A stretch of 54,342 bases of DNA from Minisyncoccota bacterium (GCA_041674945.1 JBAYUT010000001.1:1-54342); one strand, 5' to 3'; positions 2,111 through 53,203 are shown, numbered from the stretch's first letter. Numbers and translations: made by a program. The notes: a model not told the origin generated them from the letters alone.

Positions 2111-3633
2111 ATGTCCTACGAAGTCATCGAAAAACTCAAGCGTGAGATCGCCGGATTCAAAGACGATCCGCAATTCCATGCCATAGGCACGGTGGTAGAG
2201 GTAGGCGACGGTATCGCGCGCATCTCGGGTCTCACCAAGGCCGTGAGTCAGGAACTCCTTTCTATACAGACAAAAGTGGGCGATATTCCGGCGATTGCCT
2301 TCTCGCTTGAAGAAGAGTTTATCGGTGCGATTATCCTCGCCCCTGTTTCCGGCGTGCGCGTGGGCGACCGTGTGAGCGGCTCGGGCCGCGTACTCTCGAT
2401 ACCCGTAGGCGACGAAATACTCGGCCGCGTCGTTACCTCGCTAGGCGCACCGGCCGATGGCAAAGGGACCATTGGCACTGCCGATACGACAAAGCAGTAT
2501 CCACTCGAGCGGGCCGCCCCTGACGTGGTCTCGCGGGAGAGCGTCAGTGTACCGCTCCACACAGGGATCAAGGCCGTGGACGCCATGATCCCCATAGGCC
2601 GTGGCCAGCGCGAGCTGATCATCGGCGACCGTGGCACCGGCAAAACAGCGGTTGCGCTCGACGCTATTTTGAATCAGCTCAACGATACGGGCCGCCCCCA
2701 GGTGTACTGCGTGTACGTCGCCATTGGTCAGAAGCAGTCGAAGGTAGCGCAGATAGTGCGCAAGCTCGCTGACGCCGGCGCGATGGCCTACACGACAGTC
2801 GTGTCGGCGCCTGCCGGCAGTCCCGCACCACTTCTGTACCTCGCTCCTTTCGCCGGCGCCGCTATAGCCGAGTACTTCATGGACCAGGGCAAGGACGTGC
2901 TTGTGGTTTATGACGACCTTTCCAAACACGCCGACGCCTATCGCGAAATGTCGCTCCTTTTGCGCCGCAGCCCTGGCCGCGAAGCATACCCAGGCGACAT
3001 CTTCTACCTCCACTCACGCCTGCTCGAGCGCGCAGCACGCCTCGACAAGGCGCATGGTGGCGGCTCAATGACCGCACTACCGATTATCGAGACTAAGCTT
3101 GGTGACGTCGCGGCGTACATCCCTACCAACGTGATCTCTATTACCGACGGCCAGATCTACCTTGAGTCGAGCCTCTTCAACCAGGGTATTCGCCCCGCCG
3201 TAAACGTAGGCCTCTCGGTCTCTCGCGTCGGCTCCTCTGCACAAACTAAGGCCATGAAGAAAGTGGCGGGAAAGCTGCGGCTCGAGCTCGCGCAGTTCCG
3301 CGAGCTTGCAGCCTTTGTACAGTTTGCGAGCGACCTCGACGAGGGCACGCGCCAGAAGATTGCCCGCGGCGAACTCCTTACCGAGCTCCTCAAGCAACCC
3401 GATGGCGCACCGCAGGGCTACTTCTACACAGTGCCAGTACTCTACGCGGCACTGAACGGGTACCTGAGCGACGTGCCGAAGGACGAGCTACTCGCGTTCC
3501 AGGACCGTCTTGTTGAGTATCTTGAGTCCCGCCACCGAGCGGATGTTATTGAGCCGATAGAAAAGACTGGCAACCTCGATGAGATTGCAGAGGCAGCACT
3601 TAAGGCAGCGCTCGAGCAGTTTAAAAAACTCTA

Positions 3634-12048: not shown

Positions 12049-12119
12049 CGGGCTGGAGTATGCCGGCAGTACGAGCGATTCGGGTTAGTTAAGACCGGTT
12101 CCGATTCCCGGCAGCCCGA
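12049..12119 (+). pseudogene. tRNA-Pro(CGG)-like sequence with a degenerate D- and T-arm
   Basis: 71 nt. Acceptor CGGGCTG/CAGCCCG (C1:G72, A73). Anticodon loop TTCGGGT. The T-loop TCCGATT and positions 8, 14 and 53 deviate from invariant tRNA nucleotides. Confidence 0.3.
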
Positions 12120-12386
12120 CTGAACGAAGTGACGGCGACTGAAGACGCGGCGCGTCTGGCCAGGAATCGAATGCCACAGCGATGTTTTGCAAGCATGCAA
12201 AACCGCGAGGCGGGGTAGCGGAAATCCACAAGCGACGGCGAGTGGATTATCCGTGACCGATTCCCGGCAGCCCGACGGACAGTGTGGGCCAAAAAAGAGG
12301 AAATAGGTGCAAAAAATACGGCGCACGGCCCACGGACGCGCTATACTGCAAGCAGGACCAGATCTTTATATTGGAATAATTTTTTT

Positions 12387-18075: not shown

Positions 18076-19644
18076 ATGCTGTGGGCAGACCGCATTGCGA
18101 GCGAGATACGTGAGACAAGAAAGCCTAAAAACGGCACGTCTTTTCTTATACGCGACGAGAAGACCCTCTCGGGGCGCGTGCATGTGGGCTCAATGCGTAG
18201 CGTTGCCGTGCACGGCATGGTCGCTGAAGCCCTTTCCGAGCTAAATACTCCCAATGAATTCCAATTCGAGTTAAACGATTTTGACCCATTTGATTCAATA
18301 CCAGGCTACCTCGACGCGGAAAAATTCAGAGAACATTTGGGAAAGCCTCTTTACACCGTCCCGAGCCCAGAGCCAGGGTTTAAAAATTATGCCGAATACT
18401 TTGGCGAAGAGTTTATGGACGTACACAAGCAGGCCGGTTTTACTCCTACGTACTATCGCGCTACAGAGCTCTACCAGTCGGGACGTATGGACGGGCTTAT
18501 AAAGACGGCTCTCGAACGGGCGGACGAGGTGCGCAGTATTTTGAAGGCCGTCTCAGGGTCTGAAAAGGATTCGACCTGGCTACCGCTCTCAGTAGTCTGT
18601 GAGGACTGCGGAAAGATGATGACGACACGCGCTTTTGATTTCGATGGCGAGACGGTGGGCTACGCCTGCGATAGAAATCCGGACGATGCAAAAAGCTGCG
18701 GCCACACGGGCCGAGTAGCCCCATATAGCGGCACTGCAAAGCTCTTCTGGAAGGTTGATTGGGCTGCCAAGTGGATAGCGGTTGGAGTGGACGTAGAGGG
18801 CGGGGGCAAAGACCATTCGACCAAGGGCGGCTCGCGTGACGTCTCTAACCACATAAGTAAAGAGATTTTCGATACCGAGCCCCCGTTTGACACGCCTTAT
18901 GAATTTTTCCTAGTCGGCGGCAAAAAGATGGCTTCGTCAAAAGGTCGAGGAGCCTCCGCAAGAGAGATGTCCGACCTTTTTCCCCCCGAAGTGTTTCGTC
19001 TTGTCCTTATCGGTAAAGATATCCGTGAACAAATTGATGTCGACCCCGCGGGCGAATCGGTGCCGCGACTCTATGATTGGTACGACGATCTTGCCGAAAG
19101 CGTACGTACCGGCGCAGCCGACGATTACGCTCGGCTCTACACACTCTGTCAGTTGCGAGAGAACCGTGCTGGACTAGTGGCCCCATGGCAGATGCGTTTT
19201 CGCGAAGTGGCGTTTATCGTACAAATGGCGCACCTTTCATTGCTCGACGAAGCCATACGAACAAAGGGCAGCGAACTTACTGCAGACGAAGAGCAAGCAC
19301 TTGAAGAGCGTGCACGTTATGCGAAATACTGGCTTGCAAATTACGCTCCAGAAGAATTTAAGTACTCGCTGCAGGAATCACTACCAGCTGTCAATCTTAG
19401 CGACACACAAAAGAAAGCGCTTGGGGCGCTCGCAGGATATCTAGAGAGTAACGAACGCAATGGCGATGACATTCATCTGCGTTTGCACGAGCTTAAAGAA
19501 GAAATTCCTATTCAGCCAAAAGAACTCTTTCAAGCTATATATCGCGTGTTCCTCAACCGTGACTCCGGCCCCAAAGCGGGGTGGTTCCTCGCCGGTCTCG
19601 ATCGAGATTTTGTAATAAAGCGCCTGAAGGAGGCGGTTGTGTAG
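18076..19644 (+). CDS. lysK: lysine--tRNA ligase, class I
   Basis: 522 aa. GRVHVGSMRS (HIGH-like) and KMASSKG (KMSKS-like). Overall layout matches archaeal-type class I LysRS. Confidence 0.85.
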   Translation: MLWADRIASEIRETRKPKNGTSFLIRDEKTLSGRVHVGSMRSVAVHGMVAEALSELNTPNEFQFELNDFDPFDSIPGYLDAEKFREHLGKPLYTVPSPEPGFKNYAEYFGEEFMDVHKQAGFTPTYYRATELYQSGRMDGLIKTALERADEVRSILKAVSGSEKDSTWLPLSVVCEDCGKMMTTRAFDFDGETVGYACDRNPDDAKSCGHTGRVAPYSGTAKLFWKVDWAAKWIAVGVDVEGGGKDHSTKGGSRDVSNHISKEIFDTEPPFDTPYEFFLVGGKKMASSKGRGASAREMSDLFPPEVFRLVLIGKDIREQIDVDPAGESVPRLYDWYDDLAESVRTGAADDYARLYTLCQLRENRAGLVAPWQMRFREVAFIVQMAHLSLLDEAIRTKGSELTADEEQALEERARYAKYWLANYAPEEFKYSLQESLPAVNLSDTQKKALGALAGYLESNERNGDDIHLRLHELKEEIPIQPKELFQAIYRVFLNRDSGPKAGWFLAGLDRDFVIKRLKEAVV

Positions 19645-25023: not shown

Positions 25024-25027
25024 TCCG

Positions 25028-25330
25028 CTACGGATACATTGTATTCTTGAGCGCCTCAAGCTCGGCGATAACGTTCTCGTCGGTGACTTTTTGAAAACGC
25101 GGAGACGTAGTGTCGCCCTTGGCGACCTCCTCCAGAAACATCTCAAGTGGGCGCGAGCAGTACTCTGCGGGCTTGAGCCAGAGGTTTATATAGAGCGGGC
25201 GGTACAGCACCACCAGTGTCTCGAGCTCGGTGTTGCGCCCGACGCCGATCACCTCATAGGTGTAATTACCCAGCGGGCCCGCTGGGTCGTGCTTGTAGTG
25301 GTAGTAGAAGCCTTTAGTGGGGAGATTCAT
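25028..25330 (-). CDS. DUF1653 domain protein
   Basis: YYHYKH...YEVIGV...VVLYRPLY...W..RPLEMF pattern. The ATG at 25330 is preferred over the longer ORF. Confidence 0.7.
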   Translation of the reverse strand: MNLPTKGFYYHYKHDPAGPLGNYTYEVIGVGRNTELETLVVLYRPLYINLWLKPAEYCSRPLEMFLEEVAKGDTTSPRFQKVTDENVIAELEALKNTMYP

Positions 25331-25408
25331 AATCTCGTTATTATATGTTAACTTTCGGGAGGATGCGAACAAAGCTGTTCTTTCTGTCTCAACCAGAGGA
25401 AGCATCTG

Positions 25409-26029
25409 ATGAAGAGAATTCTAGTCCTCGATGCCTTCACAAATGGGCACGAGGCGGCAATAGCTTTTATGAGAAGGCAGGGTTGGCTTGACGCGGAGTG
25501 CGTGCTCTTGTTTTGCGGCTCCTTCGACAAGCTGCTAGCTCGGCTTGCGCGTGAGTCGGTCTACGCCGTAGTCCCTGTGCGCAACTCCACCATCGAGGGA
25601 TCTGAGATCACGGAAGTAACCAGACCTCTCGCAGCACTTCGCGCGAAGGGTCTGCATCTCGCAGAGCTTGACCGTGTTGTTTTGCCGGTCGAGCACCATC
25701 TGCTGGTTCAGGCGTGCGTAGAGAGCGCAGCCGAGCTCGAGTGCGTCCTGACGTACCGCAGGGCTTTCGAGCAATGTCAGAGGTATCTCGACAACCTTGG
25801 CATACCGCATGATCGGCGCCTGCGTCGAAACTCCACTGCTGGAGCAGCAAAGATTGTCTCACAACTGGGAGATCAGGCAAGGTTTGCGGCGATCGCCTCG
25901 AGGCTTGCGGCAGAGGCCTACGGACTTCGAATTCTGGCCCAGGGTATCCAGGACGATCCAGACAACAAGACGACCTTTGTGCTACTCAAGCACGTAGCCA
26001 ACGGTCACTGCGAAGGGGCACGGCGTTGA
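25409..26029 (+). CDS. pheA: prephenate dehydratase domain protein without an ACT domain
   Basis: YAVVPVRNSTIEGS, VLTYRRAFEQCQRYL and NKTTFVLL match the PDT domain. The protein ends right after the catalytic domain. Confidence 0.7.
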   Translation: MKRILVLDAFTNGHEAAIAFMRRQGWLDAECVLLFCGSFDKLLARLARESVYAVVPVRNSTIEGSEITEVTRPLAALRAKGLHLAELDRVVLPVEHHLLVQACVESAAELECVLTYRRAFEQCQRYLDNLGIPHDRRLRRNSTAGAAKIVSQLGDQARFAAIASRLAAEAYGLRILAQGIQDDPDNKTTFVLLKHVANGHCEGARR

Positions 26030-26156
26030 ATACGTCGGCCCTTTTCTTTTGTGTTTGGTAGGGGACTGAAGGCGAGGCTCTTGGGCCTTAGGATGTTTTA
26101 TGGCGACGTTTCATTTCTCGAACGGAGTCTTTAAAACTAGCAACAAGAACTAAGAA

Positions 26157-26183
26157 AGCCTCGTACCGCAATGGTACGAGGCT
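26157..26183 (-). terminator. intrinsic terminator of the 26227-26832 gene
   Basis: 11-bp stem AGCCTCGTACC/GGTACGAGGCT. On the minus strand it is followed by TTCTTAGTTCTTGTT. Confidence 0.7.
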
Positions 26184-26226
26184 CCCGAGACGAAATCGGG
26201 CTGAGTCTATGCACCCGCGTAGCGCC

Positions 26227-26832
26227 CTACCACTTCGGCTCGGCATTCAATCCCTCCACCGGGCGGTATTCGGTCTCGTCGTTGAGAACGACGAAGGCCC
26301 AGGGGCCGAGCTTCAGGAGCTCCTGGTCAGGGGCCAGTCCATCTCTGACGAACTGGTCGTATAGGAGTCTCGTATCGTCCGTGATGCGCCTCCAGCGAGG
26401 TTCTTCATCCTTGCGAATATTTCCCCGGTACGCTTTCGCCCAGTCCGCCTCCTTTTTGAGACGCGCCATGGTCAGCGTGGGGCAGCCGAAGTTGCTCGTG
26501 TAGACGATGACCCTCTTGCCGATGAACCGTACCTCTCGGCCGCTCGTCTGACTGTCGTGAGACCACGTGCGCCGATCGTCCTGGATGAACTCGATGTCGA
26601 CAAGTCGGTACGCGAGCATGATCAGATCATCGCAATTCCACCCCTGGAAGTGCCGAATGACCTGCTCCTGACTCGGATTCTGTTCGACGTCCTCGGAGAG
26701 CAGCAGGTCGTGATAATAGCTTTCGGTATCCACCAGAAACCCCGGGGCCATCTGCGTGGAGTAACACGTCCAGACCCTGATGAAGCGCTGGCGGTAGCGC
26801 ACCGCCGGAATAAGTATCTCTTCAGATTTCAT
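26227..26832 (-). CDS. hypothetical protein (island gene A, 201 aa)
   Basis: AGGAGG SD 7 nt before the ATG at 26832. Promoter TTGACG (26913-26908) -N17- TATGAT (26890-26885). Has its own terminator. Confidence 0.7.
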   Translation of the reverse strand: MKSEEILIPAVRYRQRFIRVWTCYSTQMAPGFLVDTESYYHDLLLSEDVEQNPSQEQVIRHFQGWNCDDLIMLAYRLVDIEFIQDDRRTWSHDSQTSGREVRFIGKRVIVYTSNFGCPTLTMARLKKEADWAKAYRGNIRKDEEPRWRRITDDTRLLYDQFVRDGLAPDQELLKLGPWAFVVLNDETEYRPVEGLNAEPKW

Positions 26833-26940
26833 TTGCGGATCTCCTCCTGCAAATTGTGAAAGGAGAGGGATTGCTCTATCTGTAATCATACAATTTATCA
26901 AAGCTCCCGTCAACACTCGCGCGTCTCTCAGCGCGGCATT

Positions 26941-27114
26941 CCACGCTTGCTTAGGCTCACAAATGCAAAAGCCGCCTTTCGGCGGTTTGCATTTGTGACC
27001 CAATTAGTCGTAATTGAAGCCACTTATCAGAGAGCTTAATAGCTGGTTTGTATCTGGTCGCTCCCTCGAACAGGAACGCTCCTCCGTGTAGGCCTACTGC
27101 CTTTCGGGATTAGA
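26941..27114. repeat. island repeat family, copy 1
   Basis: Contains the 42-nt hairpin 26957-26998, the conserved short frame 27014-27091 (+), and ends ACTGCCTTTCGGGATTAGA. Homologous to 28411-28576. Confidence 0.85.
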
Positions 27115-27125
27115 GCTGAAAGAGG

Positions 27126-28244
27126 CTACACGTTGCCATCGACTTGACCTCGCACGAACAGATCGAATTGAACCATGTTGTACCAGTAGCCGTATGGATC
27201 TTTCCAGAAGACTACAGGGTGTGCGGCGAGAAACTCGGCATATGATGGCGCATCGGACTTTGTCATGTCGACAAGACTATACAGACACTGGTGTACGGCA
27301 CTATTCTTCTGTGAGTCAATTTCGTATACCGTAGAGTCTTTATGAGTTGTGCCGGTCTGCACAAATAACACCTCCAAAGCATGCATAGTCTTGAAGTCTT
27401 TATAGCACTGCTCTTTGGCATATAGAGCCCCGCCGTCGTATTGAGCAATGGCGGAAGACCCATCCTTCCACGCAATACCAGGGACTTCCATATGCAGTAC
27501 TTTCTCTGAAAAATCAGTTACAAGATTTGCGCCATACCAAATGCCTATCGGTGTCTGAATGACATAGGTGGGGCGCGATCCCATATATCCATATTCAACA
27601 AAGTGCTCCTCAATATCATCAGCATCGTAGTCCGGTGTGTCCGCGTCTGGACGTGCCAGGGTGCTTCCCGACACAGTAGTGGTCGGCGTAACGGGAGTGA
27701 CCTTTCCCCAATCGCTCGCATACAGATCGGTTGCCCATACTTGGAAGCGGTGACCGTTTGAATCGGTTACGTATCTCGCCTCGCTTTGTGTTCCAGGGAG
27801 GTAAAGTTGCGTCGGAAAAGTATCCGCGGGAGCCAGGGGGAGGTTTAGGAGTCCCAGGGCTTCAATGTCGCCCTTGGGTCCGCGACGCCATCCCAAGTCG
27901 CCCCACCACGCAATGGGATTCCCTCCCGCGTCACCAATAAAGTATCCGTACGTTATGCGATTCGTGCCTCGTGCGTAATAGAGGTGAGATCCGGCGTATG
28001 GGCCGGAGTGAAATGTGGCAACATCGTGGACCGCCATAATCGGTGCGGGACCATACGAAGGAGCAAAGGGCGACTTCACTGTTTTGAAAGGTTTTGAAGC
28101 ATCGATGACTCGCCACTCAATCTGTCCTGTAGAAGAGGTCTGCGGCTCTTGCGTAGTACCATTGTGCGTGCAGTAAGCTAACCCGCCCGCCACAATGAGT
28201 ACGAGTACAACAATACAGCTGTGCATCATTCTGCTGCGATTCAT
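27126..28244 (-). CDS. hypothetical membrane-anchored/secreted protein (island gene B)
   Basis: N-terminal hydrophobic anchor SCIVVLVLIVAGGLAY. TTGACA (28281-28276) -N16- TATAGA (28259-28254) lies 9 nt upstream of the ATG at 28244. The start could also be 28262. Confidence 0.7.
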   Translation of the reverse strand: MNRSRMMHSCIVVLVLIVAGGLAYCTHNGTTQEPQTSSTGQIEWRVIDASKPFKTVKSPFAPSYGPAPIMAVHDVATFHSGPYAGSHLYYARGTNRITYGYFIGDAGGNPIAWWGDLGWRRGPKGDIEALGLLNLPLAPADTFPTQLYLPGTQSEARYVTDSNGHRFQVWATDLYASDWGKVTPVTPTTTVSGSTLARPDADTPDYDADDIEEHFVEYGYMGSRPTYVIQTPIGIWYGANLVTDFSEKVLHMEVPGIAWKDGSSAIAQYDGGALYAKEQCYKDFKTMHALEVLFVQTGTTHKDSTVYEIDSQKNSAVHQCLYSLVDMTKSDAPSYAEFLAAHPVVFWKDPYGYWYNMVQFDLFVRGQVDGNV

Positions 28245-28283
28245 GTACACGTATCTATACATTACAGCCGGTATATGTCAATT

Positions 28284-28300
28284 TTGTGACCCTACCGGGA
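28284..28300. repeat. direct repeat of the tRNA-Glu 3' end (att-like)
   Basis: TTGTGACCCTACCGGGA is identical to 31256-31272, which is the last 14 nt of tRNA-Glu plus 3 flanking nt. Followed by the imperfect palindrome GGATCGCGATTACGCGTATCGATCC. Confidence 0.6.
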
Positions 28301-28410
28301 TCGCGATTACGCGTATCGATCCTTACAGGATCAGTACACCTTGTGGAGATTTTGCTTCAGGAAATCGCATAATCTGCTCACAAGGTTTTCGATTCCCGGG
28401 CGCAAAGCGT

Positions 28411-28576
28411 CCCACGCTTTGCTTAGGGTCACAAATGCAAAAGCCGCCTTTCGGCGGTTTGCATTTGTGACCCCAGTTAGTCGTAATTGGAACCAGCTTA
28501 TCATAGAGCTTAACAGCTGGCTTGTGTTCGGAAGGGATCTAGAAGGCGTCCGCAATACTGCCTTTAGGGATTAGAA
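28411..28576. repeat. island repeat family, copy 2
   Basis: Hairpin 28429-28470 is identical in stem to copy 1. Conserved frame ends at 28574. Ends ACTGCCTTTAGGGATTAGA. Confidence 0.85.
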
Positions 28577-28601
28577 ACGGCAGAGCATGTAAGAAACAGA
28601 A

Positions 28602-28629
28602 GAGGCCCGCAGCTTGCGCTACGGGCCTC
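28602..28629 (-). terminator. intrinsic terminator of island gene C
   Basis: GAGGCCCG...CGGGCCTC stem. On the minus strand it is followed by TTCTGTTTCTT. Confidence 0.7.
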
Positions 28630-28633
28630 GACC

Positions 28634-29044
28634 TCAGCAATACTTGAACCAGGCGATCGTCGCGACGACCCAGCTCAGACAGTTCGCGATCTCACTGATA
28701 GCCGACCCGCGCCTGTTGCGCTCGTTCGCGGCCTCTCTCACTGTGAAGGCGAGTTGGAGGAGGCGGAGACTGATGGTCAGGTGACCCATCAGTACCATCT
28801 CCCACGTCAGCTTCCCTTGGTGCATCACGTACATGTTGTAGGCCAACATGAGTTGTGGTAATGCCTTGAAGAAGATCGCCAGGACACCCTTCACGATCGG
28901 GTCTTTGTACGACAAGCCGCGAAGCCGGGCCGCACCAAGCGTCAGTACGATACCGACTGACGCAAGAACCGTCGTGAGCGTATCCCGCTCGTTCCACTGA
29001 CCCGTCCCTTTCCAGAACATCACGGCGAGGAAAGACGTCACCAT
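28634..29044 (-). CDS. hypothetical multi-pass membrane protein (island gene C), weak PQ-loop-like motif
   Basis: 136 aa with about 4 hydrophobic helices and ALPQLMLAYNMY. Its start overlaps the gene D stop (ATGGTGA). Confidence 0.6.
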   Translation of the reverse strand: MVTSFLAVMFWKGTGQWNERDTLTTVLASVGIVLTLGAARLRGLSYKDPIVKGVLAIFFKALPQLMLAYNMYVMHQGKLTWEMVLMGHLTISLRLLQLAFTVREAANERNRRGSAISEIANCLSWVVATIAWFKYC

Positions 29045-29286
29045 CCAAAAGACAGTCGGTAGCTCCAGATCGTTTGCCGCATGACACGGCTAGGCTGGAT
29101 CCGATCCGCCTGTTTAACGAGACGTAGGTTGATTGCCAAGAAGATGAGCCAGAACACAAGCCAGCTGACGCTGACTCCTGCTGCTGACGTCGTCATCTGG
29201 ACGAGTTGGCCGTGGGTGGACCACGCCACGAGAAAGAATTGACTCCCGAAAAGGAAGTCTGCGAGTCGTTGCTTTCGATTCGACAT
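29038..29286 (-). CDS. hypothetical small membrane protein (island gene D), weak PQ-loop/SemiSWEET-like motif
   Basis: AAGGAGG SD before the ATG at 29286. Promoter TTGACA (29385-29380) -N17- TATGAT (29362-29357). GQLVQMTTSAAGVSVSWLVFW resembles a PQ-loop. Confidence 0.6.
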   Translation of the reverse strand: MSNRKQRLADFLFGSQFFLVAWSTHGQLVQMTTSAAGVSVSWLVFWLIFLAINLRLVKQADRIQPSRVMRQTIWSYRLSFGW

Positions 29287-29383
29287 CACGCCCTCCTTTA
29301 GGGTCGGTTGAGATCTTGTTGAGGTAAAAGAGCAGAGCCACCTATGGCTCTAAGCCATCATAGCATGTTCTGGCCCGCGTGTC

Positions 29384-29510
29384 AAGTCGTTATGCTAAAA
29401 TGAGACAAAATCGGAACCAACTTATCCTGGAGCTTAATCGCCAGCTCGACTTTGGGCGCTCGCTAGAACAAGAGAGAACAGGGTCGTAATACTGCCTTTA
29501 GGGATTAGAA
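29384..29510. repeat. island repeat family, copy 3 (no hairpin)
   Basis: Shares GTCGT.A...GGAACCA.CTTATC..GAGCTTAA...ACTGCCTTTAGGGATTAGA with copies 1 and 2. Contains the 29-codon ORF 29400-29489 (+). Confidence 0.8.
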
Positions 29511-29656
29511 CTAACCGAAAGCGCATCTTTTGTAAGCCTTGACAGAACGTATGTTCTGTGTAGTATACACAACGGAAGGGGAATTCTCCCAAAACCTGGG
29601 GGATGTCCCCAAAACTGACGGATTGACAACTGAAACGCGCAAGGAGGTTCGAGGAA

Positions 29657-31078
29657 ATGACCGACATCACCAACGGAACCGCAGACGGAGTGGAAGAAGA
29701 ACCCCGGGGCGATGCCCTGCACAAAAACGAGACCAGCGACGATGGCCAGACGGCCGAGACCGCCGACCTCAAAGACGAAACCGAGGACGATGAGGAAGAA
29801 AAAGAAGAGCCTCTCGACCCCGACGACGTCGAGGGAGAAGGACTCATCAAAATCCTCCTCCCGCACATCGGCCTGCAGGAACCCAACCTGCCGGTGCAGT
29901 GGTGCGTCGCGCCCAAGCTGATTGCGGCCCTCAAGCGGCGATGGCTGGCAGACGACGCACATGTGCTCTTCTGCATCACGGATGAAAACGGGTGGGAAGT
30001 TCCTGGCATGCGCCAGATCGTCCCCCTCATGCAGGTGCAGACGTGGATCCCGTTCCGCAAACCCGGTGCCTTCACCATCCACGCTCGTGTCGTCTCCGGC
30101 GACTACGACAGGTCGCTCATGAAGTACCTGGTACGTGACAACGGTTCTGCGAGTGCTCGATACGACACCGACATTCTGCATGCCGACCGCATTCCGCGGA
30201 TCATGGATGAACAAGGCGTCGACGAGGCTGAGGCCCGCCGGCGACTGAGCATCCACAAGGGTACTGTCAGTGGGTTCGGACTCTCGAAGAAGGAGATCAT
30301 GATCGATGAGAAGCTCTTCGCTCCTCCTCCTTCGCCATGGCTCGCATGGTGGATCATGTTCCCCAACAGCGACGAGTTCCGGCCCGACGACGAGTGCCAC
30401 TTCCGCAAGCAGGTGCTCTGGGCGATCCCCAAGATCGCCTACATCGGCCCGTGGGCACTGAGCATCGTGCTCTGGCGAGCGCTTCTCGCGTTCGGCTGGC
30501 GCATCCTGCTCCTCGGCTCGTTGCAGGCGTGGAAACCTCTGCTCCATCCGTTCGCGATGCGAACGGCGAGCATGTTCCTGCCGGAAAAGGAGGCCCTCCC
30601 CACGATCGCTCGTGGATGGCTTCTCAGATTGCAGGAGAAGGAAGGGGACGAAGGACAGCACTACGATGAGCTCGACGTGGGCTGGTGGACGCCGATCGGC
30701 ATCCTCCAGATGCCGCTAACGTGGCTCGTGCTGCTGGTGCTGGGGACAATTCCCGGTCTGTTCATGGAGTACGGCTTCACCTTCTGGAACCTGCTCATCG
30801 CAGGTCTCGGTACGGTGGTGGCAATCGCCAGCATCATCGCGGCGGGAGTCGGACTGTTCATGGGCAAGGAGAAGCTCGAGGAGAGGTATCCCAACGCGGG
30901 CTACCACTTCAGCAAGTGGCTCCGAAGCTATTTCGGCCGAGAGAAGGATGAGTTCGCCGATATCGTCTGCGAAGACGGTAAGGCGGCGTTCAAGCCCTTC
31001 TCTGCGGTGCCGAAGAACCGCCAGCTCATCTTCAACGCGATCAAGCACGAAGTCTGCAAGATCTACGCTCGCTCGTAA
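29657..31078 (+). CDS. hypothetical membrane protein with an acidic N-terminus (island gene E)
   Basis: AAGGAGG SD. Promoter TTGACA at 29539-29544 with a TG-extended -10 near 29561-29567. Several C-terminal TM helices and a long terminator hairpin downstream. Confidence 0.75.
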   Translation: MTDITNGTADGVEEEPRGDALHKNETSDDGQTAETADLKDETEDDEEEKEEPLDPDDVEGEGLIKILLPHIGLQEPNLPVQWCVAPKLIAALKRRWLADDAHVLFCITDENGWEVPGMRQIVPLMQVQTWIPFRKPGAFTIHARVVSGDYDRSLMKYLVRDNGSASARYDTDILHADRIPRIMDEQGVDEAEARRRLSIHKGTVSGFGLSKKEIMIDEKLFAPPPSPWLAWWIMFPNSDEFRPDDECHFRKQVLWAIPKIAYIGPWALSIVLWRALLAFGWRILLLGSLQAWKPLLHPFAMRTASMFLPEKEALPTIARGWLLRLQEKEGDEGQHYDELDVGWWTPIGILQMPLTWLVLLVLGTIPGLFMEYGFTFWNLLIAGLGTVVAIASIIAAGVGLFMGKEKLEERYPNAGYHFSKWLRSYFGREKDEFADIVCEDGKAAFKPFSAVPKNRQLIFNAIKHEVCKIYARS

Positions 31079-31125
31079 CGGGAGCGTACGCCAACCGGCT
31101 TGTGCGAAGGCCGTCAGGTTCGTTC

Positions 31126-31173
31126 AACACTCATTCGTATACTCGACCTCCAGTCGAGATACGGGTGAGTGTT
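31126..31173 (+). terminator. intrinsic terminator of island gene E
   Basis: Long hairpin AACACTCA...TCGAC-CTCCA-GTCGA...TGAGTGTT followed by TTTTAATTT. Confidence 0.7.
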
Positions 31174-31258
31174 TTAATTTATGCTGACGCAAAGTATTGG
31201 TTCGATCGTCCCGTTTGGATACTCCGCACGAGCCCGTAAAATAAGCACAAAATAGTTG

Positions 31259-31330
31259 TGACCCTACCGGGAATCGAACCCGGATTTAAAGCTTGAGAAG
31301 CTTCCGTCCTAACCGTTAGACGATAGGGCC
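31259..31330 (-). tRNA. tRNA-Glu(CUC)
   Basis: Reverse complement is GGCCCTATCGTCTAACGGTTAGGACGGAAGCTTCTCAAGCTTTAAATCCGGGTTCGATTCCCGGTAGGGTCA. Anticodon loop TTCTCAA. Canonical T-arm. Confidence 0.85.
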
Positions 31331-31470
31331 GTGTTGTGCACCCGGCCATACACCCGGCGCTTCGCTCGGAACAAATTAGGATTTGTTCTCTCGCTCCGCT
31401 TGGTTGTAGGGCCCGACTGCGCACGCCCTTGTTTTATAACAAAAAAATCCCTGGGAGGGAAGCATGGAAA

Positions 31471-31519
31471 AATCCGTAACTGTGCGGGAAGCTGGCGTGC
31501 TCCCGTGCAGTTACGGATT
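31471..31519 (-). terminator. intrinsic terminator overlapping the stop of the 31511-31822 gene
   Basis: AATCCGTAACTG...CAGTTACGGATT long stem with an inner CGGGA/TCCCG. On the minus strand it is followed by TTTTCC. Confidence 0.6.
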
Positions 31520-36238: not shown

Positions 36239-36327
36239 TTATGCTTCGTTACGATTAGATAGCACGGCGCGCAAGGTCTCTGCATCCGAGTACTCAAGCT
36301 CGCTGCCCGTGGCGAGGCCACGACTAG
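36239..36327 (-). pseudogene. displaced copy of the recR 3' coding end
   Basis: About 83% identical to 37381-37470. Encodes RGLATGSELEYSDAETLRAVLSNRNEA-stop, against ...RAALSNRKEA-stop in recR. Abuts the terminator hairpin. Confidence 0.8.
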
Positions 36328-37380: not shown

Positions 37381-37983
37381 TCACGCCTCCTTACGGTTGG
37401 AGAGCGCGGCGCGCAGAGTCTCAGCATCCGAGTACTCAAGCTCGCTACCAGTGGCGAGGCCGCGACCAAGCACCGAGGTCTTTACGAGGTCGCGATAGGG
37501 CGCGAGCATAAGGCGTATGTGGTCTGCGGTATGCTCGCCCTCGCTCGTGGCCGAGAGCGCAAGCACGATCTCTTGCAACCCATTTTGGATGCGCCGCTCA
37601 AGTGCAGAGATGAGCTCTTTCTCACGAATACCACCCTTGCCCGTGAGCGTGAGCACGCCACCGAGTACGAAGTAACGACCCTTGTAGGTACCTGCGCGCT
37701 CTATGGCGGAAAGGTCCTGATCTTTCTCGACGAGCATCAGGAGCGAGTCATCACGACGCGCGTCGCCACAGTAGCTACAGACGAGCGCGCTCGAGCCATT
37801 GTAGAAGCGTAGGCAGTCGGGGCACTGGCGAACGTTTTTTCCTAAATCGGCAATAAGCTCAGCGAGCTTGGTGCGCTCGCTCGGCGGTATAGAAAGGAGG
37901 TGAAAGACAAAACGCTTACCCTGGCGAGGCCCAATGCCCGGTAGTCGCGCGAGCGCTTGAGCAAGTTCGTCGATTTTATCCAT
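37381..37983 (-). CDS. recR: recombination protein RecR
   Basis: HhH N-terminus (LARLPGIGPRQGKR), C4 zinc finger (CPDC...CSYC) and a Toprim domain. Confidence 0.95.
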   Translation of the reverse strand: MDKIDELAQALARLPGIGPRQGKRFVFHLLSIPPSERTKLAELIADLGKNVRQCPDCLRFYNGSSALVCSYCGDARRDDSLLMLVEKDQDLSAIERAGTYKGRYFVLGGVLTLTGKGGIREKELISALERRIQNGLQEIVLALSATSEGEHTADHIRLMLAPYRDLVKTSVLGRGLATGSELEYSDAETLRAALSNRKEA

Positions 37984-52068: not shown

Positions 52069-53203
52069 ATTCGTGTGAGAGCGCGATGCCAAGCACGGTG
52101 CCGGCGAGTATGCGCGCCGCATCTGGGTCGGTAAAGCCTGCGGCAGAGGCACTCATCCTTGTCGCGACCTCTTTGTCTTTAATAATGCGCTCTATCTCTG
52201 AGGCGAGGAGGTGCGGCGTAAGGTTCCCCTCTTCTATCACCACTGCCGCACCGGTACGCGCGTAGGCGTAGGCATTGCCATGCTGGTCATGGCTCACCGA
52301 TTCTGGGATAGGTATCAATATTGCCGGCTTCTTCCAGGTAGATATCTCCGCGATAGTGCCGGTGCCCGCGCGCGAGACTATCACGTCGGCAATGCCCGCG
52401 GCTCGCTGTAGAGAGATCTGTGAGAGATAGCCAAACGCGTGGTAGCGGCTGGCGTGAGGGTCTTTGTCTAAGATTACCTGCGCGATCGCCTCGCAGCTCT
52501 TCAGATTGTTCTCACCGGTCTGGTGGATGACGTTCGCGAGAGCAACAAGCGCTGGCAGCGCAGTGATAACGGTCTCATTAATCTTTTGTGACCCTTGTGA
52601 CCCTCCCGTGATATATACCGTCGGTAGGCCCTGCTCGAGCTTCAAGTATTCTCGCGCTCCCTCGGGCTCTACGCGCATGAGCGCCTTGCGTATCGGCGTG
52701 CCCGTGCGAGCGATGTTGCCCTGTACCTTTTTTGGAAAGAAGGCCGCAGCACTTTCATATGAAATGGCAATCTTCGCCGCAAACGTAGCGGCAAAGAGGC
52801 TCGCGCGGCCCGGCTTCGAATCTGACTCATGGATAACGACCGGTATCCGCAAGAGGCGTGCCGCCATGAGCGTAGGGATACTACCGTACCCGCCCTTGCT
52901 CACCACCACGTCGGGATACAAGCGAAAGAGCATCGCCAGAGCGCTGAGCGTACCCGCGAGCGTCACAAAGAGATCGCTGTAGTTGCGCAGTGAAAAATAG
53001 CGACGCCACTTCCCTGCCGGTACGCGGATGAACACGATGCCGTTCTCAAAAAGAGCTTCCTTGTCATAGGCGTCCGGCCCCATGAAGTAGAGCTGGGGCT
53101 CAATGAGACGGCGCTCGCGTACCAGATCAGTCATCGCCTCAGCGATCGCGATAATCGGGTAGAAGTGCCCCCCTGTCCCCCCGCCAGTAAATACAATCTT
53201 CAT
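52061..53203 (-). CDS. murG: UDP-N-acetylglucosamine--N-acetylmuramyl-(pentapeptide) pyrophosphoryl-undecaprenol GlcNAc transferase
   Basis: MKIVFTGGGTGGHFYP N-terminus and a C-terminal GT28 domain. Confidence 0.93.
   Translation of the reverse strand: MKIVFTGGGTGGHFYPIIAIAEAMTDLVRERRLIEPQLYFMGPDAYDKEALFENGIVFIRVPAGKWRRYFSLRNYSDLFVTLAGTLSALAMLFRLYPDVVVSKGGYGSIPTLMAARLLRIPVVIHESDSKPGRASLFAATFAAKIAISYESAAAFFPKKVQGNIARTGTPIRKALMRVEPEGAREYLKLEQGLPTVYITGGSQGSQKINETVITALPALVALANVIHQTGENNLKSCEAIAQVILDKDPHASRYHAFGYLSQISLQRAAGIADVIVSRAGTGTIAEISTWKKPAILIPIPESVSHDQHGNAYAYARTGAAVVIEEGNLTPHLLASEIERIIKDKEVATRMSASAAGFTDPDAARILAGTVLGIALSHEYE

Follow-up and report, generated by a model that had tools for sequence, protein, structure and literature searches.

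Do two copies of a tRNA 3' end, lying 3 kb apart, delimit one mobile element, or do they belong to separate insertions that share a target? The question arises at a tRNA-Glu(CUC) gene within a 54,342-nucleotide stretch of DNA (the window) from a Minisyncoccota bacterium. The host genome, a 671-kb assembly, is Kaiserbacteria-like and belongs to the Paceibacteria/Parcubacteria. Patescibacteria have tiny genomes in which few mobile elements have been recognised and which usually encode only one tyrosine recombinase; their gene content is nevertheless very variable among relatives. An earlier note on this DNA had read the two repeats as the boundaries of one integrase-less 3-kb module and had also raised the idea that similar modules accreted serially at this tRNA. 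Our analysis favours accretion: positions 25024-31258 are probably a stack of independent recombinase-less insertions at the tRNA-Glu(CUC) 3' end, comprising two kinds of insert.

The tRNA gene and the repeats derived from it are located as follows.

31259-31330, minus strand: tRNA-Glu(CUC), intact, found by ARAGORN and by Rfam RF00005 (63.7 bits); the seed of the island
31256-31272: tRNA-proximal copy of the 17-mer TTGTGACCCTACCGGGA, the last 14 nt of tRNA-Glu(CUC) plus CAA
28284-28300: inner copy of the 17-mer, exact and in the same orientation; the direct arm of the mini-element listed below
28465-28473: distal 9-nt repeat TTGTGACCC (GGGTCACAA in tRNA sense), partner of 31256-31264

The 17-mer is composed of the last T-loop base, the 3' strand of the T-stem, the 3' strand of the acceptor stem and the discriminator (together 14 nt), followed by CAA. 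Its first 9 nt in the proximal copy (31256-31264, TTGTGACCC) double as the proximal repeat of a cassette insertion. The exact, same-orientation repeat described in the earlier note was confirmed as a unique pair, since these are the only 2 copies in the whole 671-kb assembly with up to one mismatch allowed, and the number of matches expected in shuffles is 0. A near-match at 52595 (2 mismatches) lies within a coding gene and was dismissed as chance. Classical tRNA islands leave the tRNA gene intact and repeat its 3' end, in the same direction, at the distal boundary of the insert. This arrangement is seen here, and the data support the proposal that the repeat was left by an insertion into the 3' end of the tRNA gene. 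The imperfect palindrome reported at 28298-28322 is also real and corresponds to the GCG-TAAT-CGC hairpin of the mini-element core.

Synteny with relatives delimits a hypervariable island at 25024-31258, adjoining the tRNA gene; one conserved flank stops at ~25023 and the other begins at ~31859. Between these flanks the content is different in every relative and free of recombinases, in a comparison with nearest relatives whose flanking genes share only ~82-89% protein identity. The sequence to the left of 28284 is cargo (gene B) rather than conserved flank, the true flank ending at ~25023. Farthest from the tRNA lie the following genes.

25024-26937: outer part of the island, with the DUF1653 gene, the prephenate dehydratase (PDT) gene and gene A, none of them at the same locus in relatives
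25028-25405, minus strand: DUF1653 gene
25409-26029, plus strand: stand-alone PDT gene
26227-26832, minus strand: orphan gene A

The inner 17-mer belongs to a structured, gene-less unit, of which an older remnant lies farther out.

28284-28473, minus strand: mini-element (SE) of ~190 nt, recognised by blastn copies, presence in relatives, covariation and a covariance model
28426-28473: fold-back terminator hairpin of the mini-element
26938-27001, minus strand: second fold-back hairpin (repeat family D2) with the truncated remnant of an older mini-element, its first ~20 nt

The mini-element comprises a fold-back terminator, an inverted acceptor arm, a TGGGA-loop hairpin, an inverted T-arm (CCGGGAATCGAA), a core and a direct arm. 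The inverted and direct arms pair and thereby close the conserved three-way junction of the core, which carries TGTAA- and TAAT-loop hairpins. A covariance model matches 28283-28432 on the minus strand with 165 bits (E 4e-42), covering the ~150-nt structured part. RNAalifold yielded 41 pairs, of which 26 show compensatory changes, and none of the pairs in the T-stem-like arm is broken in any of 13 sequences. As to the folding strand, G.U versus C.A counts gave no more than one conserved U.G pair in favour of the tRNA-sense strand. The second fold-back hairpin is 98% identical to the first. Rfam 15 contains nothing that matches 28284-28473 or the end modules described below even at E<=5; across 25900-31500 the tRNA alone reaches the gathering score, and the few hits below threshold elsewhere in this region seem to be chance matches. 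The inner 17-mer is the closing arm of the mini-element, and the two 17-mers do not hold up as attL and attR of a single 2,972-bp element.

The host genome contains 4 copies of the mini-element by blastn, including one behind tRNA-Glu(UUC) on contig C6, one behind tRNA-Arg(UCU) on C43 and a fourth on C4. The C6 and C43 copies are bordered by the 3' end of their own tRNA (14 and 24 nt, respectively), starting at the same T-loop position. With the covariance model, mini-elements were found in 29 of the 61 genus genomes, at 0-13 copies per genome. Among 17 extracted units, 10 have a sense tRNA just upstream, representing 8 different tRNA species, and in most of these 10 the direct and inverted arms follow the local tRNA; the core stays ~80% identical while the arms change with the tRNA. 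Because the arms follow the tRNA, target choice might be programmable. At tRNA-Glu(CUC) itself, one or two mini-elements directly abut the gene in four relatives (G028, G017, G031 and L093), where the same tRNA-end repeat recurs merely 172-190 nt apart. The 3' flank of this tRNA lacks a mini-element in L082, L091, L092 and L097 and carries other cores in L095, L117 and L085. Tandem copies occur among relatives, and in G005 cargo sits within the mini-element frame. The ends of the mini-element are target copies rather than terminal inverted repeats of its own, and its repeats (14-24 nt) are tRNA-specific, which separates it from MITEs and IS derivatives; a search for the rve family found no rve transposase in the genome. 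We also considered the tRNA primer-binding site of a retroelement and rejected it, as the sequence to which the inverted arm corresponds is the genomic trailer (CAA...) and not CCA.

The remaining inserts carry genes. From the tRNA outward they are:

29513-31255: cargo of cassette 2a, gene E together with a promoter/5'UTR of its own and a terminator hairpin of 21 bp
29657-31078, plus strand: gene E, a 473-aa orphan membrane protein with an acidic N-terminus and three hydrophobic segments
31092-31181, plus strand: 90-nt block after gene E with the terminator hairpin, 96.7% identical in a distant MAG
29400-29512 (repeat copy 29413-29512), plus strand: micro-ORF module R3, which closes cassette 2a; ORF 29400-29489 (MRQNRNQLILELNRQLDFGRSLEQERTGS), junction repeat decayed
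28604-29350, minus strand: cargo of cassette 2b, a promoter-D-C-terminator unit
29038-29289, minus strand: gene D, a small membrane protein
28634-29044, minus strand: gene C, a small membrane protein that overlaps D in ATGGTGA
28474-28576, plus strand: micro-ORF module R2 (R2-right), which closes cassette 2b; ORF 28467-28574 (VTPVSRNWNQLIIELNSWLVFGRDLEGVRNTAFRD), starting at the GTG of TTGTGACCC
27002-28283, minus strand: cassette 1, gene B plus module R1, with GGGTCACAA on both sides
27126-28262, minus strand: gene B, a secreted 378-aa orphan
27002-27118, minus strand: micro-ORF module R1 (R1-right) of cassette 1, frameshifted

The 2.78 kb between mini-element and tRNA (28474-31255) are bounded by merely 9 nt (GGGTCACAA) and hold two cassettes, E and D-C. 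Their gene content is as the earlier note claimed, with two overlapping small membrane proteins and one large membrane protein with an acidic N-terminus. Neither Pfam, PHROG nor PADLOC returned a match for genes A-E or the micro-ORF, and in phage and plasmid collections the tRNA itself was the sole match. Gene E has a single homologue among 5.8e9 proteins, which is likewise convergent to a tRNA-Glu, without D-C beside it. In the distant MAG that shares the 90-nt block, the E proteins are only 35% identical, against 96.7% for the block. The D-C block recurs at 80.6% nucleotide identity in one unrelated contig, as a discrete 750-nt unit with other flanks. This only homologue of D-C lies in another context, without E and without any R module, which raises the possibility that the cargo is not transferred together with the R module.

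The three copies of the island repeat given in the earlier note (27002-27118, 28474-28576 and 29413-29512) are genuine. This R module of ~105 nt encodes a conserved micro-ORF of ~30 aa that begins inside the copied tRNA end, its GTG start falling within a copy of the last 8-11 nt of the tRNA. We found 18 copies in 16 genomes, with a codon-position entropy of 22.2/14.4/28.3 and a synonymous share of 28% in the micro-ORF frame versus 15% and 8.5% in the other frames. These substitution patterns show coding selection on the micro-ORF; readings of the module as a decayed tRNA or as a CRISPR-like or tracrRNA repeat were discarded in favour of coding. A convergent tRNA-Glu lies within 5 kb of the module in 12 of 19 genomes, and the cargo beside it is different each time, ranging from 327 nt to ~4.8 kb. 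The distal junction of the cassettes is conserved (...AATTACGACTAAyT/GGGTCACA). Because the GGGTCACA repeat is missing from the R3 junction and the R1 micro-ORF is frameshifted, the boundaries of cassettes 2a/2b and 1 are partly reconstructed. In G020, G018 and other genomes, R modules close tRNA-Glu cassettes without any mini-element. A contig of G015 begins with a truncated ORF whose 3' end adjoins an R-module homologue; the C-terminus of this ORF resembles a DDE transposase or integrase core, as judged by eye only.

The island would thus contain two kinds of insert: mini-elements, with arms corresponding to the 3' end of the particular tRNA that precedes them, and "Glu-cassettes", single promoter-gene-terminator cargos with a micro-ORF module at the tRNA-distal end. 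Each new arrival would push older inserts away from the tRNA. Nearest the tRNA, the first layer would be cassette 2a (gene E with R3) and the second cassette 2b (D-C with R2). The third would consist of GGGTCACAA, the fold-back hairpin and the ~150-nt structured mini-element, and the fourth of the inner 17-mer, which would be the original 3' end of the tRNA. The mini-element would have displaced it by entering at the last T-loop base, bringing along a spare 3' end and a terminator. Cassette 1 (gene B with R1) would form the fifth layer, and GGGTCACAA, a hairpin and the stump of the older mini-element the sixth, with gene A, PDT and DUF1653 outermost. At least three separate recombinase-less insertions are bracketed by the tRNA-Glu end. 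Given a mini-element, two cassettes, the gene B cassette and the older stump, the locus looks like an integron-like stack. Serial accretion, as the earlier note suggested it, fits these data well, with a third cassette (gene B) and the older mini-element stump lying beyond the 17-mer. That the inserts are mobile is suggested by comparison of sequences between species only.

A single integrase-less integrative element of 2,972 bp, inserted in one event between the 17-mers as attL and attR and mobilised in trans, would account for the exact 17-nt identity and for its start at a T-loop position typical of integrase crossovers, and G005 does have cargo inside the element frame. We consider it improbable nonetheless. 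Here the mini-element frame does not enclose the cargo, which is situated between the fold-back hairpin and the tRNA and carries a 9-nt repeat (GGGTCACAA) and an end module of its own; in four relatives the mini-element directly follows the tRNA with no cargo, R modules close cassettes without a mini-element in G020, G018 and other genomes, and the homologues of E and D-C are found separately, in separate contexts. Instead of a single 3-kb module, the DNA between the repeats comprises one mini-element and two cassettes, each of the latter having its own homologue and end module. Against the stack counts its 9-nt identity, which is short for a classical att site.

The stack might also be the residue of classical islands, in which integrase-carrying, tycheposon- or P4-like elements at tRNA-Glu later lost their integrases and left the mini-element and the R module as attP arms. 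Repeated tRNA 3' ends and pushed-out older inserts are indeed the trace that serial integrase-driven integration leaves in tycheposons (doi 10.1101/2020.12.28.424599), and the truncated ORF beside the G015 homologue is DDE/integrase-core-like by eye only. However, neither this island nor the corresponding islands of G017, G002, G028 and G005 contain an integrase or a fragment of one, and nearly all genus genomes have a single Xer-like tyrosine recombinase and no other of the class. Moreover, 327-nt cassettes and 190-nt mini-elements recur in many genomes with structures that are intact and covarying, unlike random decay, so that we hold this origin to be quite unlikely. Little probability attaches, too, to a locus that is not mobile at all, made up of a non-coding RNA resident in the genome and transcribed together with tRNAs (serving, for example, in processing or regulation), a resident small gene beside tRNA-Glu, and, at a recombination hot spot, repeats that local duplication and gene conversion would have produced. 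The core is structured and conserved like an RNA gene, with its 26 covarying pairs and conserved U.G pair, the micro-ORF shows coding selection, and the 98% identity of the R1 and R2 hairpin segments suggests conversion. Yet the copies are patchily distributed (half of the genus has 0, other members up to 13), a given tRNA locus is filled in some relatives and empty in others, copies occur in tandem, one island holds three micro-ORF modules, and the arms are rewritten for 8 tRNA species, all of which insertion fits better than a vertically inherited housekeeping RNA.

If the island is a stack of inserts, the enzyme that moved them would have acted in trans. As the earlier note stated, the interval is devoid of recombinases, and no ORF of 25024-31258 has a recombinase domain. 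The note had suggested looking elsewhere in the genome for a tyrosine or serine recombinase able to act in trans; both are present, and the trans role itself we infer. The only Phage_integrase gene, on contig C20, encodes an Xer-like tyrosine recombinase, and two serine recombinases are encoded outside the island, on contigs C9 and C18. Serine recombinases occur in 19 of 29 genomes with the mini-element versus 20 of 32 without it, and were rejected as the mobilising enzyme given this lack of association and their absence from 10 element-bearing genomes. The Xer-like recombinase is the sole universally present candidate for such a role, an assignment that we regard as unlikely.

The locus shares features with several known systems. 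As in the genomic islands and prophages that tyrosine integrases insert into tRNA or tmRNA genes, with attL and attR carrying the tRNA 3' end, insertion is directed to the 3' portion of a tRNA gene and the repeat begins in the T-loop, a spare 3' end rebuilds the tRNA, and older inserts are displaced outward. Unlike those elements, which hold an integrase gene next to an att site, it has no integrase in cis, and its units are small (0.19-1.8 kb); the mini-element adds an inverted target copy and combines variable arms with a ~80% identical core, and the cassettes share merely 8-11 nt with the tRNA. Prochlorococcus tycheposons form tRNA-adjoining islands in which successive integrations push earlier elements inward and partial tRNAs are scattered, in a streamlined host with adaptive cargo (doi 10.1101/2020.12.28.424599). 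Stacked islands seeded by a tRNA, partial tRNAs and a streamlined host genome are common to both, but tycheposons carry their own tyrosine recombinase and replication genes, whereas the island here has no such hallmark, and most genus genomes, too, lack the hallmark genes apart from the Xer-like gene.

Integron cassettes with attC sites are likewise small, mostly single-gene and stacked at one site, with a conserved or structured recombination-type module at the end away from the insertion point; the mini-element arms, which fold into a duplex copy of the target, recall the folded attC strand that forms a recombination site. In contrast to integrons, which are defined by intI, attI and Pc, we found neither IntI nor attI, and the window encodes no tyrosine recombinase; the cassettes have their own promoters and terminators, lie in either orientation, and their end module encodes a peptide. 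Elements of the IMEX type, such as the CTX phage and the gonococcal island, also lack a recombinase of their own and accumulate in tandem at one site, and the setting is similar in that the only ubiquitous tyrosine recombinase of the genome is Xer-like. However, these elements use dif via dif-like sites, and the target here is the tRNA-Glu 3' end, with no sequence resembling dif identified. Patescibacteria may conceivably possess an undescribed cassette-capture system, with tRNA 3' ends as attI, two end modules that encode no protein or only a micro-ORF as attC (the mini-element, its sense and antisense arms rewritten to suit any tRNA, and the tRNA-Glu-specific module, whose 30-aa peptide starts within the att copy), insertion in trans by, for example, the single Xer-like recombinase or an unrecognised enzyme, and a target set by nucleic-acid complementarity instead of a dedicated integrase; we offer this as a tentative idea that is more doubtful than the stack itself.

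The locus provides a concrete route for gene-content variation in an ultra-small Patescibacteria genome, in which small, self-contained cassettes carrying orphan surface and membrane genes are stacked behind a tRNA gene with no integrase in cis. Should the end modules prove to be recombination sites used in trans, this would be integron-like gene capture built on tRNA genes. On the practical side, a direct repeat of a tRNA end does not by itself delimit one element. The cassette junction reads CCCCAGTTAGTCG, which by eye only is a near miss to the attC box GTTRRRY.

The earlier note had read 28284-31330 as a single 3-kb module bounded by a direct repeat of the 3' end of tRNA-Glu(CUC). The 17-mer TTGTGACCCTACCGGGA is duplicated exactly at 28284-28300 and 31256-31272, where chance would predict no match, and the whole 671-kb, 45-contig assembly holds just these two copies at up to one mismatch. 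In the tRNA sense it reads T, CCCGG (3' strand of the T-stem), TAGGGTC (3' strand of the acceptor), A and CAA; its first base is thus the final one of the T-loop. The two copies are not, however, the ends of one element: the interval consists of a gene-less, folded mini-element, whose direct arm is the inner 17-mer, and at least two cassettes with separate homologues. The relevant features, including three R modules (micro-ORF end modules of ~105 nt), are:

27002-27118: R1-right, closing the next unit outward, after gene B
28284-28473, minus strand: mini-element
28474-28576: R2-right, the 'island repeat' at the tRNA-distal end of the extra DNA
29413-29512: R3, between gene E and genes D-C
31259-31330, minus strand: tRNA-Glu(CUC)
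Contig C6: mini-element homologue directly 3' of tRNA-Glu(UUC)
Contig C43: mini-element homologue 3' of tRNA-Arg(UCU)
Contig C4, 32399-32542: mini-element homologue with arms GTAGGA/TCCTAC and GCTCCGCG/CACGGAGC

These homologues in the same genome show that the inner 17-mer is followed on its right by a stretch of ~170 nt (28301-28473) that is not unique. The direct repeat of the adjoining tRNA's own 3' end that flanks the mini-element measures 14 nt on C6 (TGACCCCACGGAGA); on C43 it is 24 nt long, with a single mismatch. Both repeats start at the same T-loop position. ARAGORN detected no tRNA matching the arms near the C4 copy, whose target may be another RNA or gene end, and no tmRNA in the assembly. 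In the tRNA sense, the tRNA is followed by a fold-back hairpin, of which the acceptor 3' strand and trailer form part, an inverted acceptor arm, a TGGGA-loop hairpin, an inverted T-arm (CCGGGAATCGAA, the reverse complement of TTCGATTCCCGG), a conserved core and the direct arm. Within this core, the GCG-TAAT-CGC hairpin is the palindrome reported at 28298-28322.

This genome and its relatives together provided seventeen units. A sense tRNA lies just upstream of ten, spanning eight species (Glu-CUC, Glu-UUC, Trp, Arg-UCG, Arg-UCU, Arg-GCG, Ser-GGA and Met), and in most of these ten both arms match the local tRNA. An alignment of 13 units yielded a three-way-junction consensus of 41 pairs, 26 of them with compensatory changes and none broken in the T-stem-like arm; a single conserved U.G pair speaks for the tRNA-sense strand as the folded one. 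With the covariance model derived from these 13 units, the copy at 28283-28432 (minus strand) reaches 165 bits; the model finds 0-13 copies per genome, with the element present in 29 of 61 genus genomes. Rfam holds no family for it. A mini-element of another core family (CCAGGAATCGAATGCCACAGCGATG...) follows tRNA-Val(CAC) and a tRNA-Pro-like sequence at 12049-12277; its end is formed by a 19-nt direct repeat, CGATTCCCGGCAGCCCGAC (12101-12119 and 12259-12277), and in its core it is similar to the tandem unit that comes second behind tRNA-Glu in the relative G017. An 82-nt direct repeat with 85% identity lies at 36243-36324 and 37385-37466.

In tblastx comparisons, conserved synteny blocks stop at ~25023 and resume at ~31859 (the YqeY gene), and in every relative tRNA-Glu(CUC) lies between them, followed by differing content. 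G028, G017 and L093 have the tRNA, then directly the hairpin, mini-element and repeat, at a spacing of 172-190 nt; in G031 two tandem mini-elements, together ~600 nt, separate the left block from the tRNA. Mini-elements with other cores, or cargo within the frame, occur in L095, L117 and L085, and unrelated sequence free of any element follows the tRNA in L082, L091, L092 and L097. These states mark the mini-element as a unit that can be separated from the rest and normally abuts the tRNA. Cargo in relatives includes an MFS transporter, a thioredoxin-fusion protein, TruB and a 1351-aa surface protein; all islands examined lack a recombinase. In G017, G002 and G028, the tRNA and its downstream island are inverted relative to the conserved flanks, so that the tRNA is on the plus strand beside the left flank (right flank, minus strand in the window).

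In the window the order, in the tRNA sense, is tRNA...TAGGGTCACAA, 2,782 nt, then GGGTCACAA, hairpin and mini-element; thus just 9 identical bases bound the extra DNA (28474-31255). Beyond R1-right, GGGTCACAA recurs, followed by a hairpin of 98% identity and by what remains of a truncated mini-element, its first ~20 nt. Homologues of the R module were found in the genomes G020, G018 and G015, and a sample of 401 genomes of the order yielded them in 16; 12 of 19 genomes have a convergent tRNA-Glu (CUC or UUC) within 5 kb. The cargo between tRNA and R module ranges from 327 nt to about 4.8 kb and differs in each case. The distal junction is conserved (...AATTACGACTAAyT/GGGTCACA, slash at the junction), with an identity to the tRNA of just 8-11 nt.

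Translated antisense to the tRNA, all R copies give (V)TQ(V/I)(G/S)(Q/R)NWNQL(I/V)xELNxWxxFG(R/K)xLE..., with a GTG start inside GTGACCC, the copied tRNA end. Codon-position entropy is 22.2/14.4/28.3 (18 copies, 16 genomes), 28% of differing codons are synonymous in this frame versus 15% and 8.5% in the others, and serine is encoded by AGC in one copy but by TCC in a second. Such a coding signature predicts that the R module encodes a peptide, which matched no family. The R1 micro-ORF is frameshifted, and R3 lacks the junction repeat.

The gene content is as originally described, with D and C overlapping in ATGGTGA and E combining an acidic N-terminus with hydrophobic segments. Among the island ORFs, Pfam, PHROG and PADLOC searches matched only two at the far edge, DUF1653 and a stand-alone prephenate dehydratase (25409-26029). 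In another family of the order (L053), a tRNA-Glu cassette has a prephenate dehydrogenase-like gene as cargo; fragments of aromatic amino-acid pathways are thus recurrent cargo. Among 5.8 billion proteins, gene E has a single homologue, at 35% identity. It is convergent to a tRNA-Glu, separated from it by an insert of 155 nt that a 28-nt tRNA-end repeat bounds, and lies on a contig without a D-C homologue. The D-C unit, from -35 box to terminator (28604-29350), is 80.6% identical in nucleotides to positions 1267-2017 of an unrelated contig (L162, GCA_040384425.1), between unrelated genes, with other neighbours and neither tRNA nor R module. Because homology stops at the -35 box and terminator, D-C is a self-contained portable expression unit; because E and D-C have separate homologues in separate contexts, the 2.78 kb resolves into two or more cassettes, namely E+R3 and D-C+R2. 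Gene B has one homologue (50% identity) in a further different context. R module and cargo may not travel as one unit. Just past gene E, a sharply bounded 90-nt block including a 21-bp terminator hairpin (31092-31181) is 96.7% identical to a distant MAG contig (GCA_013565555.1), beside E proteins just 35% identical and coding DNA about 66% identical, which would reflect either strong constraint or recent exchange.

The locus thus shows a stacked architecture, in keeping with the serial accretion proposed in the earlier note; the order of events and their recombinational mechanism we infer from sequence. In the most economical history, an older mini-element would have stood behind the tRNA when cassette 1 (B+R1) inserted at the extreme 3' end of the tRNA. 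A new mini-element would then have entered at the T-loop, bringing a spare 3' end and terminator and displacing the original 3' end, now the inner 17-mer; the D-C and E cassettes would finally have inserted at GGGTCACAA. Such accretion resembles tycheposon-built islands and integron arrays.

The genome-wide search for a recombinase outside the interval found a single tyrosine recombinase, Xer-like and encoded on C20 (312 aa), and two serine recombinases, on C9 (363 aa, 18596-19057) and C18 (582 aa, 3035-3466); no rve transposase was found. Nearly all of the 61 genus genomes have exactly one Xer-like gene. Serine recombinases are no commoner with the mini-element (19/29 genomes) than without it (20/32), and ten mini-element-bearing genus genomes lack them entirely. 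If a resident enzyme of these classes acts, the Xer-like protein would be the only one always available, a weak, correlative hint. Contigs C9 and C18 have a lower G+C content (0.51-0.53) and are possibly integrated or extrachromosomal mobile elements.
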